Of a DNA stretch of 64,000 bases, positions 40,760-42,651 are shown piece after piece (within the stretch, counting starts at the first letter, position 1; every line of letters begins with the position of its first letter). Below the pieces are notes generated by a model, which was not told the DNA's origin, did not search any database, and worked only from the letters and a program-made list of their open reading frames with translations. The translations under genes were made by a program, and so were the position numbers. The stretch is taken from assembly GCA_023401595.1 (NCBI GenBank), contig JAEXDQ010000037.1, positions 31,701-95,700 of the forward strand. Direction: 5' to 3'. The stretch comes from Spirochaetota bacterium. Lineage in GTDB: Bacteria; Spirochaetota; Spirochaetia; Sphaerochaetales; Sphaerochaetaceae.

Positions 40760-41599
40760 CTAGACGTCGAACAAAATCAGTTTGTTCCTCAATTGTGAAA
40801 CCTTGGCAGTCCCCGTCCAACCTTCTTTGAAATCAGGGCAATGGTTCCCGTAACACATTTTCAATTCCTGTTCTATTGGTCGGACATCGGCGTAGGAAAG
40901 CCCGCAAGTTCGGCACGACACGCAGTATTCCGAGGCTTGGTCGGCCTGGCAACCATGCGTGCAACTCGGTCCAGGCTCCCCAGGAATCTTCGAGTTGCAT
41001 TCGGACAGCAAATTTGCGGGCACTTCGGTCAGAGTCCCGTAGGTCGCCATACTGATATCAGATACGGCATCCCCACTCATGCGGTATCCAACAGCCACAA
41101 CCCAATGGGAGGTCTGGATACTCCCAATGCAATACGGAACCATGACAAGTCCGCCTTTGTCGAGTTGCTCTTTTATGATTGCCGAGAAAGTGGTTTCCGT
41201 ACTATCGACGACCTTGCAACGACTATGGGTGGAGATTGGCATGAATTGGCGATACAACTTCACAATATCGGCGGGATCAAACATCTCACCGAGAGTTGTA
41301 TCTCCATTTTCAATCGCCTTGTACAACACAGTACCTCCTTCCGCTTGAGAAAGGGGTAATTGAACCGGCAACACATCAGCTACGGTCGCAAGAATCGCAC
41401 GCCCGCTCATTTTTCTCAGAATCATCGCCAATGCATAGAGGCCGCAGGTCGATCCCCGCTGGTTCATACATACACAATTTGAAAATCCTGAGGAATATAC
41501 GAAGCCGTCCGCATCCTGTGAAGAACCAATCGCAGGCAGCTCTTTGACAAGATACTCTTTTGTCATTGGATCAGCTTCATCGCGCAGATATACGTTCAT
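40760..41599 (-). CDS. Papain-fold cysteine peptidase (C39-like) with a Cys-rich C-terminal extension
   Basis: AAGGAG lies 6 nt upstream of the ATG. The candidate nucleophile is in GSTCGLYALAMIL and the candidate His in QTSHWVVAVGY. The tail holds 7 Cys (CTHGC, CVSCRTC, CYGNHC). Confidence 0.6.
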   Translation of the reverse strand: MNVYLRDEADPMTKEYLVKELPAIGSSQDADGFVYSSGFSNCVCMNQRGSTCGLYALAMILRKMSGRAILATVADVLPVQLPLSQAEGGTVLYKAIENGDTTLGEMFDPADIVKLYRQFMPISTHSRCKVVDSTETTFSAIIKEQLDKGGLVMVPYCIGSIQTSHWVVAVGYRMSGDAVSDISMATYGTLTEVPANLLSECNSKIPGEPGPSCTHGCQADQASEYCVSCRTCGLSYADVRPIEQELKMCYGNHCPDFKEGWTGTAKVSQLRNKLILFDV

Positions 41600-41609
41600 A
41601 TTCAGCTCC

Positions 41610-41996
41610 TTATTTCGTCACTCTCGCCACATAGCTTCTTCCATCCCATCCCTGATAGATGATGATGGAATCGGTATGATGAACCTGTTCATCCGTCTTC
41701 TGATAGTGGATGAAGATATTCCCGTCACATCCTGCGCGCCAACGGCCTCCGCCATGAGTGAAATACTCGAATGCAGGTACTTCGCGATGGGGTTCCCTTT
41801 CGTCCTTATCCTGGATGACCAGATGTTCGTCGATATAATAGGCGGCGAACTCCTCCCCTTTCCAATTGCAGAATTCGAGCCGATCGACCCTATGTTCATT
41901 CTGCCTGGAGGGATAGTCCTGACGAATGAATTCCAAGTCCCTCCTGATTGATGATGGATTCAACTTGTCAGCGCATTGATTCATTATGTCGTTCAT
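41610..41996 (-). CDS. Uncharacterised 128-aa protein
   Basis: AAGGAG lies 6 nt upstream of the ATG, and the gene is tightly packed between the two peptidase genes. I recognise no family. Confidence 0.6.
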   Translation of the reverse strand: MNDIMNQCADKLNPSSIRRDLEFIRQDYPSRQNEHRVDRLEFCNWKGEEFAAYYIDEHLVIQDKDEREPHREVPAFEYFTHGGGRWRAGCDGNIFIHYQKTDEQVHHTDSIIIYQGWDGRSYVARVTK

Positions 41997-42012
41997 GAGA
42001 TTCTCCTTGGAA

Positions 42013-42651
42013 TCAGAATTCCGTGACTACTAGAGACTGCGTCCGATGTCCTTCCAGATATTCAGTCAGAGCTACATCAAACGTCTCAGCTCCATTGTCC
42101 ACAGCCTGTCTGGCTCCTCTCGCAGGATCGAACATCCACCAGCAAGTATCACTGAGTTTGTTCGCATCCCCAGAAACACAGACAATCGTATGGCCTGTTG
42201 AAACCCCATTGCTCATGAAACCAAAGCAGAGCAATGCACAATGCATTCTGTTAATGATACTGCACACTTCCGCGATTCCAGTATTCAACTGTGCCCTTCC
42301 ATAGGAAGTACAGGCAATCAGAGGCACGGTATTATTACTGATGCTACCCATAGCTTCAGTAATCAAGGTAAGGGAAGTTTTCGTGGTATTCATGCTGTCA
42401 TACTGGTATGTATCTTGTACAGTGGCCACCAACTGCAATCGTGCATCGCTGGCCAATAGATCCGTGTGCATGGTGTTCCAAATTTGTACGACATCTTTCA
42501 TCGGAGACAGCTGATATCGCTTGATGAATTCCAATGAAAGCGCAAAACACATGCCGTTTGCAATTGACGTAACAGTCCTGTATCCGGCTGAGCGTCTAAG
42601 CAATGCAACATGATCATGGATTGTTCCTCGATCCGTATAGTATTTCGCCAT
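42013..42651 (-). CDS. Papain-fold cysteine peptidase, YopT/C58-like
   Basis: The ordered Cys-His-Asp candidates are NGMCFALSLEFI, STGHTIVCV and WWMFDPARG. The last resembles the FDPN.G motif I recall for the YopT family. Confidence 0.55.
   Translation of the reverse strand: MAKYYTDRGTIHDHVALLRRSAGYRTVTSIANGMCFALSLEFIKRYQLSPMKDVVQIWNTMHTDLLASDARLQLVATVQDTYQYDSMNTTKTSLTLITEAMGSISNNTVPLIACTSYGRAQLNTGIAEVCSIINRMHCALLCFGFMSNGVSTGHTIVCVSGDANKLSDTCWWMFDPARGARQAVDNGAETFDVALTEYLEGHRTQSLVVTEF

Follow-up and report, generated by a model that had tools for sequence, protein, structure and literature searches.

Two different thiol-peptidase-like genes in a DUF2589 gene cassette of a Sphaerochaetaceae bacterium

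The analyzed DNA, hereafter the window, is a stretch of 64,000 nucleotides (nt) from contig JAEXDQ010000037.1 (assembly GCA_023401595.1, positions 31,701 to 95,700 of the forward strand) of a Spirochaetota bacterium of the family Sphaerochaetaceae. From 45737 to 40172, its minus strand carries eight open reading frames (ORFs), g1–g8, which were read as a single transcription unit and which combine a trio of DUF2589 genes (g1–g3) with two genes for thiol-peptidase-like proteins, g5 and g7. A Shine–Dalgarno site of the AGGAG/GGAG type lies 5' of each operon start, and the intergenic spacing from g4 through g5, g6, and g7 to g8 is 9, 16, 10, and 39 nt. The features of the operon and its immediate surroundings are as follows:

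46001-46369, plus strand: CI-like helix-turn-helix (HTH) regulator (PF07022/PF01381), divergent from the operon
45799-45850, no strand: 24-nt inverted repeat in the leader/operator region upstream of g1
45036-45737, minus strand: g1, 233 aa, DUF2589 paralog A (divergent; acidic tail at the C-terminus; PF11655, 53 bits)
44180-44755, minus strand: g2, 191 aa, DUF2589 paralog B (PF11655, 129 bits); homolog start at 44749
43549-44127, minus strand: g3, 192 aa, DUF2589 paralog C (PF11655, 118 bits), 89–99% identity in related loci
42661-43392, minus strand: g4, 243 aa, N-terminal signal/anchor (hydrophobic segment aa 5-34), last gene of the conserved core
42013-42651, minus strand: g5, 212 aa, ATG start, candidate orphan YopT/C58-like thiol peptidase
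42547-42549, 42190-42192, and 42127-42129, minus strand: candidate triad Cys35, His154, and Asp175 of g5, from the alignment
41610-41996, minus strand: g6, 128 aa, conserved framework protein between both peptidases
40760-41599, minus strand: g7, 279 aa, ATG start, ACTMAP-like (C39-like fold) cysteine peptidase domain (aa 45-171) and C-terminal extension
41459-41461, 41444-41446, and 41105-41107, minus strand: candidate catalytic residues Gln47, Cys52, and His165 of g7, from the alignment
40838-40963, minus strand: Cys-rich insertion in the g7 tail (C213, C217, C226, C229, C232, C249, C254)
40172-40720, minus strand: g8, 182 aa, TTG start with an AGGAG site, last intact operon gene here
40034-40150, minus strand: remnant of a MACPF gene (tblastn), matching aa 91-134 of the 459-aa MACPF proteins of loci L001 and L002
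37169-39806, plus strand: second HTH copy and an AAA_13 ATPase (164 bits), convergent with the operon end

The mechanically called ORF of g4 (42661-43524, 287 aa) opens 44 codons early. Homologs begin at its Met45, upstream of which AAGGAG is found, and these observations indicate that the true start of the gene is 43392. The acidic tail of g1 differs in length from locus to locus. Neither g6 nor g8 gave a family match in the Pfam-type scan or a match in the PDB search, and the operon proteins had no meaningful match in PADLOC or PHROGs.

An earlier note on this DNA, made from the sequence alone, had read g5 and g7 as two unrelated papain-fold cysteine peptidases lacking signal peptides. The presence of two different thiol-peptidase-like genes in one operon was confirmed: the ORFs, all quoted motifs, and a segment with seven cysteines were found in their places, and profile–profile comparison detected no family relation between g5 and g7 (hhalign of the two families, E 0.13, not significant; the thin profiles account for the lack of significance here and in the other hhalign comparisons of g5, g7, DUF261, and YopT given below). 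According to the hydrophobicity analysis, neither protein has a hydrophobic N-terminus or a transmembrane-like segment, which bears out the absence of signal peptides, and both are predicted to be proteins of cytoplasmic type.

The g7 protein matched the Pfam family PF21646 (ACTMAP-like_C) with 37.7 bits at a gathering score of 27, aa 45-171 aligning with positions 4-119 of the 121 of the profile. A paralog encoded in a related locus (L001:8040-8867) was also above the threshold, with 32.3 bits. The motifs GSTCGLYALA and SHWVVAVGY occupy aa 49-58 (41426-41455) and aa 164-172 (41084-41110) of g7, respectively. Relatives are scarce, word-indexed and exhaustive searches giving 2-3 of them. In the alignment of four g7-type sequences, comprising g7, P0002 (57% identity), L002:7775-8554 (about 38–40%), and the L001:8040-8867 paralog (23%), the residues Gln47 and Cys52 (Q-x4-CGLYAL) and the pair His165-Trp166 are invariant at identities of 23–57%. 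A third, acidic or amide, catalytic residue is not conserved among the homologs, D181 being Lys in P0002. For ACTMAP (C19orf54), cysteine protease activity is established and the catalytic Cys is defined; the enzyme also resembles cysteine proteases of bacteria (PMC13367750). Like it, g7 has Cys in a Q-x4-C-G motif and a downstream His-Trp; unlike it, g7 belongs to a bacterial operon, is unrelated to actin processing, and carries a C-terminal extension of ~110 aa with the Cys-rich insertion. On this evidence, g7 is assigned to the ACTMAP-like (C39-like, Gln/Cys/His) family of thiol peptidases as a genuine member.

The C39-like character proposed for g7 held as far as it refers to a papain-type family recognized above a curated threshold and to the Gln/Cys/His order. 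It did not extend to the C39 family itself: g7 has no match to Peptidase_C39 (PF03412) at E<=1, the g7 family profile recovered no C39 chain from the PDB sequences, and no ABC (ATP-binding cassette) transporter is encoded in the window operon or in the loci L001, L002, L004, and L007, so that g7, in contrast to C39 peptidases, is neither fused to such a transporter nor located near one. The putative enzyme may be labeled as having a C39-like fold, not as a C39 family member.

As for the tail of g7, the motifs CTHGC, CVSCRTC, and CYGNHC provide seven Cys in 42 residues (C213-C254), so the cluster that had been called zinc-ribbon-like is real; however, no zinc-ribbon family was matched by the tail in the Pfam scan. 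The ortholog P0002 keeps 5-6 of the Cys in the form Cx2C...Cx2Cx2C plus the last Cys (Cx3C...Cx2Cx2C in g7 itself). In the ortholog L002:7775-8554, the Cys-rich segment is deleted and all Cys but one are lost, and the segment is absent from the L001:8040-8867 paralog. Since it is missing in both, the cluster is interpreted as a lineage-specific, dispensable insertion, for which a putative small Zn-binding knuckle is plausible. The sole PDB similarity of g7, to the disulfide-rich region of thaumatin (E 0.046), was rejected as reflecting Cys richness only.

In g5, the motifs NGMCFALS (aa 32-39, 42535-42558), STGHTIV (aa 151-157, 42181-42201), and MFDPARG (aa 173-179, 42115-42135) contain the candidate Cys, His, and Asp in this order. 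The family is very small. The indexed search returned two relatives with 80% and 75% identity, the exhaustive HMMER search over 1.84 billion representatives added only P0006 (34% identity), and the metagenome scan gave further near-identical copies only. A fifth member, L017:9124-9867 (247 aa), was recognized by motifs and position. In all five sequences, down to 20% identity, Cys35 (G-x-CFALS), His154 (GH), and Asp175 (FD) are invariant, and all ~5 known members of the family adjoin DUF2589 genes. The Ka/Ks ratios of g5 (nonsynonymous to synonymous substitution rates) relative to L002 and L007 are 0.30–0.35; such purifying selection indicates that g5 is a real gene.

Among the family models, TIGR01586 (yopT_cys_prot) was the top match of g5, yet below threshold (E 0.011, 15.8 vs 52.95 bits). 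The same model tops the list for 3 of 4 g5 family members (best E 1.3e-4, below the curated cut-off), and PF03543 was matched, also sub-threshold, by two close relatives of g5 (best E 0.038); the three YopT-matching members share 75–80% identity and do not provide independent evidence. Comparison of the Cys motifs (GMCFALSLEF in g5, GVCEALCAHW in YopT) gives the common pattern GxCxAL[SC]xx[FW], and the Cys–His distance is 119 residues in both proteins. No significant match to a characterized peptidase structure was obtained when g5 was compared with the PDB by sequence and profile. A tblastn search of plasmids with YopT yielded Yersinia YopT alone. The likeness of g5 to YopT/AvrPphB (MEROPS C58) consists of the ordered Cys...His...Asp, the Cys motif, the Cys–His spacing, and the alignment of His154 and Asp175 with YopT H258 and D274, whereas g5 has neither a type III secretion context nor an N-terminal secretion/chaperone-binding region. 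The earlier proposal of a YopT/C58-like arrangement is therefore retained for residue order and the 119-residue spacing and not for family membership, the hidden Markov model scores being far below the curated cut-offs. The g5 protein appears to be an intact candidate enzyme of a tiny orphan family with a YopT-like Cys/His/Asp order, and it is likely to be a thiol hydrolase of YopT-like architecture. By themselves, the two putative peptidases are new and represent strongly diverged forms of thiol-peptidase kinds already known.

Related loci were found in metagenome-assembled genomes of Sphaerochaetaceae. The complete loci L001 and L002 comprise a divergent AAA_13 ATPase and CI-like HTH, followed by g1–g4, a peptidase slot, and g6; after g6 come a small variable slot, g7, the g8 slot, the 459-aa MACPF protein, and a protein of ~330 aa. 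Amino acid identity between L001 and L002 divides these genes into two groups:

Framework: g1 91%, g2 92%, g3 91%, g4 73%, g6 85%, MACPF 83%, channel-like protein (~330 aa) 92%
Variable: slot-5 peptidase from different families (ACTMAP-like vs g5), g7 37%, small slot and g8 slot unrelated

Variability within the cassette is thus greatest in the peptidase slots, with 0–37% identity vs 73–92% for the framework genes. The same was seen in L004, the locus of a near-identical strain, which has 96.7% DNA identity to positions 46412-42659 of the window and 98.3% to 39945-37430. The identity ends at 42659, the g4/g5 boundary, and a different cassette follows from g5 on, with a g5', a gene for a 159-aa deaminase-like protein (HAE...PCxxC, weak deaminase matches), and unrelated genes. 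Between the window and L004, Ks is ~0.05 for g1–g4.

In spirochaete trio loci, the slot after the trio (after g4, if present) is nearly always occupied by a Cys/His/Asp protein. The occupant is g5 in the window and in L002, L003, L004, and L007, the 247-aa g5-like protein in L017, an ACTMAP-like protein in L001, and DUF261 in L014, L105, and L109. The slot contents are best described as predicted non-orthologous displacement of one chemistry, and the occurrence of one of three Cys/His/Asp families after the trio in nearly every locus type can be used to argue that this chemistry is required. The census of neighborhoods drew on about a dozen types of cellular loci and on 80 viral ones and is not a systematic survey.

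DUF261 shows the same residue order as g5: Cys24 (GCYFLS), His105, and Asp118 (DPLG) are invariant. Neither the hhalign comparison of DUF261 with the g5 family (E 0.073) nor that with YopT (E 0.39) was significant, and the likeness to g5 is at motif level. DUF261 is probably an unrecognized family of small thiol hydrolases. In Treponema-type loci, the DUF261 proteins (L014:11158-11580, L105:8204-8611, and L109:8457-8864; 135-140 aa) always come after the trio.

The remaining slots do not vary together with the peptidases. With either peptidase family in front of it, the g6 protein keeps 78–85% identity in L001 and L002, and its 78% identity in L001, beside the other family, argues against the suggestion of the earlier note that this 128-aa protein could be a cognate inhibitor. 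The g8 protein is 85% identical in L002, where g7 is 38% identical; in L001, where g7 is 56% identical, an unrelated protein of 175 aa takes the place of g8. The independent variation of g6, g7, and g8 means that there is no covariation of the toxin–immunity or enzyme–inhibitor type, and the idea of g6 or g8 as a cognate inhibitor or immunity protein was rejected.

Only a fragment of g7, its first 68 aa, is present in L007, L023, and L024. In L002, an orphan ORF of 116 aa between g6 and g7 (L002:7363-7713, plus strand) corresponds to the C-terminal half of a YopT-like protein (GSGHAIACF...WVVFNPTVRGG); the Cys-bearing half is missing and Asn replaces Asp. In addition, small proteins carrying the zinc motif of deaminases, HAE...PCxxC, were observed in variable slots (L003:3230-3709, L004:10922-11401, L007:13006-13485, L009:11362-12942, and L001:9606-9926), with weak matches to dCMP_cyt_deam, MafB19, and XOO_2897.

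The MACPF protein of L002 is intact and exceeds the PF01823 threshold (25.5 vs 21.5 bits); it matches the insecticidal pore-forming toxins Mpf2Ba1 (8b6v, E 3e-8) and GNIP (6fbm). The likeness to Mpf2Ba1/GNIP1Aa is a sequence match of the 459-aa cassette protein, which differs from them in being paired with a pLGIC-like membrane protein and in being encoded in an operon with thiol peptidases. The terminal gene for the ~330-aa protein (L001:12999-13991, L002:10562-11572, L014:12349-13353) encodes a signal peptide, an ectodomain of ~200 aa, and four C-terminal hydrophobic helices. Its matches to models of pentameric ligand-gated ion channels (pLGICs) are weak (NF033918, 3.5e-6, for the Treponema homolog L014:12349-13353; TIGR00860, 1.1e-5, for L001:12999-13991). 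A bacterial pLGIC-like gene linked to a MACPF toxin homolog was thus seen in the complete cassettes. Genes of the g7 type were found only together with the g8/MACPF/pLGIC module, that is, in L001 and L002 and also in the window, where a remnant of MACPF is left. The window retains only ~40 aa of MACPF (aa 91-134) directly 3' of g8, the pLGIC-like gene is gone, and the HTH/AAA_13 pair has been relocated to the 3' side of the operon. The window copy of the cassette is rearranged and truncated, and the system does not naturally end with g8. The idea of g8 as a terminal toxin-like protein was accordingly dropped, given that the complete loci continue with MACPF and pLGIC-like genes.

DUF2589 proteins are widespread; the protein search with g2 found 574 relatives in Spirochaetota, Bacteroidota, Planctomycetota, and others. 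The AlphaFold2 model of g2, obtained with 74 sequences, has a predicted local distance difference test score (pLDDT) of 64.5, with a long helix, four long strands, and a C-terminal helix predicted confidently. The loop at aa 106-149/150 was not modeled, yet it is strongly patterned across the 74 homologs: alternating residues are Ser/Thr-rich, the tip is aromatic (GFFG, KWFG or SWWG), and GKVSTS(K/R)ENTRSTNQTAKYQ is near-invariant. The g3-type paralogs lack the aromatic tip. The suggestion that the g2-type loop resembles a membrane-inserting hairpin is speculation from this pattern. Foldseek comparison of the DUF2589 model with the PDB found no analog (none at E<=0.001), sequence and profile comparison of DUF2589 with PDB entries likewise gave no meaningful match, and a type IV pilin-like N-terminus was rejected, Glu+5 not being conserved in g1 and g3. 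In the literature searched, DUF2589 is mentioned only in passing, PF11655 does not occur, and the listed matches to DUF261 concern other DUF numbers.

With respect to viruses, the BFVD search with the model returned only one viral DUF2589 homolog, and tblastn of phage GenBank sequences with g2 gave no match; pairs of DUF2589 genes were found on 165 IMG/VR viral contigs. Many of these pairs adjoin an endolysin-like gene (phrog_33083, 4.5e-16) and genes for small membrane or coiled-coil proteins. Other viral pairs end a block of recombination genes (candidate exonuclease, RecT-like). DUF2589 looks phage-associated. Among the cellular loci, Treponema-type loci contain an integrase, the trio, and DUF261, the channel-like gene being optional, and Spirochaetia L017 contains MarR, the trio, and the g5-like protein. 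In Planctomycetota, a deaminase-like gene follows the DUF2589 pair (L019); in L021, an HNH gene is a neighbor; in Crocosphaera L010, lysozyme-M15 and patatin genes, and no peptidase, lie beside the pair.

The cassette as a whole is uncharacterized: to the DUF2589 trio it joins a thiol peptidase, which is interchangeable, and MACPF, pLGIC-like, and deaminase modules, which are optional. The genes g5 and g7, which probably encode different cysteine peptidases of papain type, are fast-changing add-on parts of this repressor-controlled mobile cassette. As to their role, we favor, with a probability of roughly 40%, the reading that g5 and g7 are module-specific partner or activator proteases. The g5-type enzyme would serve the DUF2589/g4 module and the g7-type enzyme the g8-MACPF-pLGIC module; each would cleave a co-encoded or trigger protein in the cytoplasm of the producer, by which a membrane-active effector would be switched on. 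Such logic would be that of protease-plus-pore-former conflict systems, and the finding of diverse proteases beside a conserved candidate pore-former follows the pattern of protease-gated pore systems. The reading is supported by the recurrence of a Cys/His/Asp protein after the trio and by the restriction of g7-type genes to loci with the MACPF module; the Mpf2Ba1-like MACPF protein and the g2-type proteins with their patterned loop are candidate effectors, and the HTH paralogs upstream of Wadjet and of AAA_13 provide a matching setting.

Several results weigh against this reading. Peptidase genes are missing beside the DUF2589 pairs of Bacteroides/Bacteroidota, of Planctomycetota, and of the 165 viral contigs, which implies that DUF2589 proteins need no peptidase in general, and the genome of L001 contains another locus, L009, with the trio and deaminase-like genes and no peptidase. 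The peptidases diverge much faster than their proposed substrates (in L004, g2 and g3 are 99% identical to those of the window vs 34–35% for g5), no substrate or cleavage motif was found for g5 or g7, and the deaminase-like genes (HAE...PCxxC) that share the variable region are effector-like rather than processing enzymes. The enzymatic assignment of g5 is affected as well. Its divergent relatives P0006 and L017 match no Pfam or YopT model. The hhalign comparison of the g5 family with Yersinia YopT was not significant (E 0.26), although its only aligned block places His154 and Asp175 of g5 opposite YopT H258 and D274. The AlphaFold2 model of g5, from a 3-sequence alignment, has a pLDDT of 36.8, and only the order of its elements fits a papain-type fold, a Cys helix being followed by His/Asp strands. 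The more specific proposal of a protease cascade or of dedicated processing of the paralogs A–C found no support, the slots being variable (0–37%) and the DUF2589 pairs elsewhere being peptidase-free.

The main rival reading, somewhat less probable, is that the peptidases are effector toxins, that is, interchangeable payloads, alongside the deaminase-like and MACPF proteins, of a DUF2589-based cassette for conflict or toxin release, which would act on proteins of a target cell or, in abortive infection, of their own cell rather than on those encoded with them. YopT-family and C39-like papain-fold domains commonly serve as toxin domains. The hypervariability of the peptidase, deaminase, and g8 slots between loci otherwise 73–92% identical speaks for such payloads, as does the replacement of the cassette exactly from g5 on in the near-identical strain L004. 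The displaced fragments (N-terminal part of g7 in L007/L023/L024, YopT-like half in L002, MACPF in the window) and the toxin-type enzymes next to DUF2589 elsewhere (deaminase-like in L019, HNH in L021, lysozyme-M15/patatin in L010) point in the same direction. However, domains for trafficking or delivery are lacking in the proteins, as are signal peptides. No immunity gene co-varies with them, g6 being constant and g7 and g8 varying independently, and the minimal loci, consisting of the trio and a peptidase, contain no immunity candidate. Moreover, a thiol-peptidase-like gene is almost constant in trio loci and is not one option among many.

A papain-type Cys/His center could also be used for non-peptidase chemistry on a partner or the envelope, as in a transglutaminase, deamidase, acyltransferase, or amidase, and clan-CA-type folds include many non-peptidase enzymes. 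Assignment of g5, the L017 protein, and DUF261 at motif level only, with no significant match of g5 to a characterized peptidase structure, leaves room for this explanation, which we nevertheless consider improbable: the best sub-threshold matches of g5 are models of the YopT protease, and the founding member of the g7 family is a proven protease with a catalytic Cys (PMC13367750). Trimming by g7, as a C39-type leader peptidase, of a Gly-terminated leader from DUF2589 proteins for bacteriocin-like export is very improbable, although the variable N-termini of these proteins end at Gly13, which is almost invariant and precedes a conserved LP motif (...NMMGG/LPM in g2), and the Gln/Cys/His order is that of C39-like enzymes, since Peptidase_C39 is not matched, none of the related loci encodes an ABC exporter, the DUF2589 proteins of peptidase-free loci conserve the Gly just as well, and g7 co-occurs with MACPF rather than with DUF2589 in general.

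The activator-protease reading has its closest counterpart in bacterial gasdermin–protease operons. As in these, a conserved candidate membrane-active protein lies beside proteases of varying families, in a defense-like setting and under tight regulation. In contrast to them, the cassette has three paralogs rather than one, the DUF2589 model structurally matches neither gasdermins nor any other PDB entry, the proteases lack recognizable sensor domains, and cleavage is a prediction. Polymorphic toxin/orphan-module arrays offer a second comparison, to which the cassette is similar in its hypervariable enzymatic modules, displaced fragments, and exchange between near-identical strains; it differs from them in that its proteins are free-standing, with no N-terminal delivery domains and no co-varying immunity genes. 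The cassette is at least a variant of protease-plus-pore-former or toxin-cassette systems.

More broadly, and tentatively, the trio cassette may represent an undescribed phage-derived conflict system for defense or toxin release, in which DUF2589 would be a new class of membrane-inserting hairpin proteins, the thiol peptidases (g5 family, DUF261, ACTMAP-like) would be triggers, and the MACPF, pLGIC-like, and deaminase proteins would be plug-in effectors. Under such a conflict-system interpretation, DUF261 and the g5 family would be newly recognized YopT-like peptidase families dedicated to the cassette. In spirochaetes, members of the widespread DUF2589 family are organized together with a thiol peptidase in mobile cassettes that are compact and under repressor control; in Sphaerochaeta, these also encode MACPF, pLGIC-like, and deaminase-like proteins. 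Should the peptidases activate membrane-active partners, the cassette would be a new pore system gated by proteases, a counterpart of the gasdermin–protease systems; should they be payloads, it would be a new cassette for toxin delivery or toxin release. The exchange of cassettes at a fixed breakpoint between near-identical strains is a clean natural experiment and provides a directly testable set of genes.

A CI-like HTH gene is located divergently upstream of the cassette in L001, L002, L004, and L007. The same four loci keep the inverted repeat (45799-45850) that lies between the divergent HTH gene and g1 in the window, is 92% complementary, has a 4-nt loop, and could be a putative operator or 5'-untranslated region hairpin. 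The HTH/AAA_13 pair, convergent with the operon end in the window, precedes the DUF2589 genes in divergent orientation in L001, L002, and L007; its window copy is 98% identical at the nucleotide level to that of L004, where it lies ~7 kb away. The pair behaves as a movable two-gene module. A third HTH paralog (6368-6757, plus strand), with 52–56% identity to the other two, precedes Wadjet genes. With paralogs upstream of the cassette, of AAA_13, and of Wadjet, one family of regulators fronts three conflict modules in the window. The Wadjet genes and further defense-type neighbors are listed below:

6919-8412, plus strand: JetA/DUF3375 of Wadjet
8982-12620, plus strand: JetC of Wadjet
12613-13833, plus strand: JetD of Wadjet
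46496-47014: DUF4143 fragment, probably a pseudogene
47109-48497: ATPase_2/DUF234
48739-49929: HipA kinase toxin
50327-51532: AAA_14/DUF4143 ATPase

With these genes, the neighborhood of the cassette looks like a defense island. Elsewhere in the window, positions 22001-24000 have a G+C content of 0.40, compared with about 0.50 in the rest.

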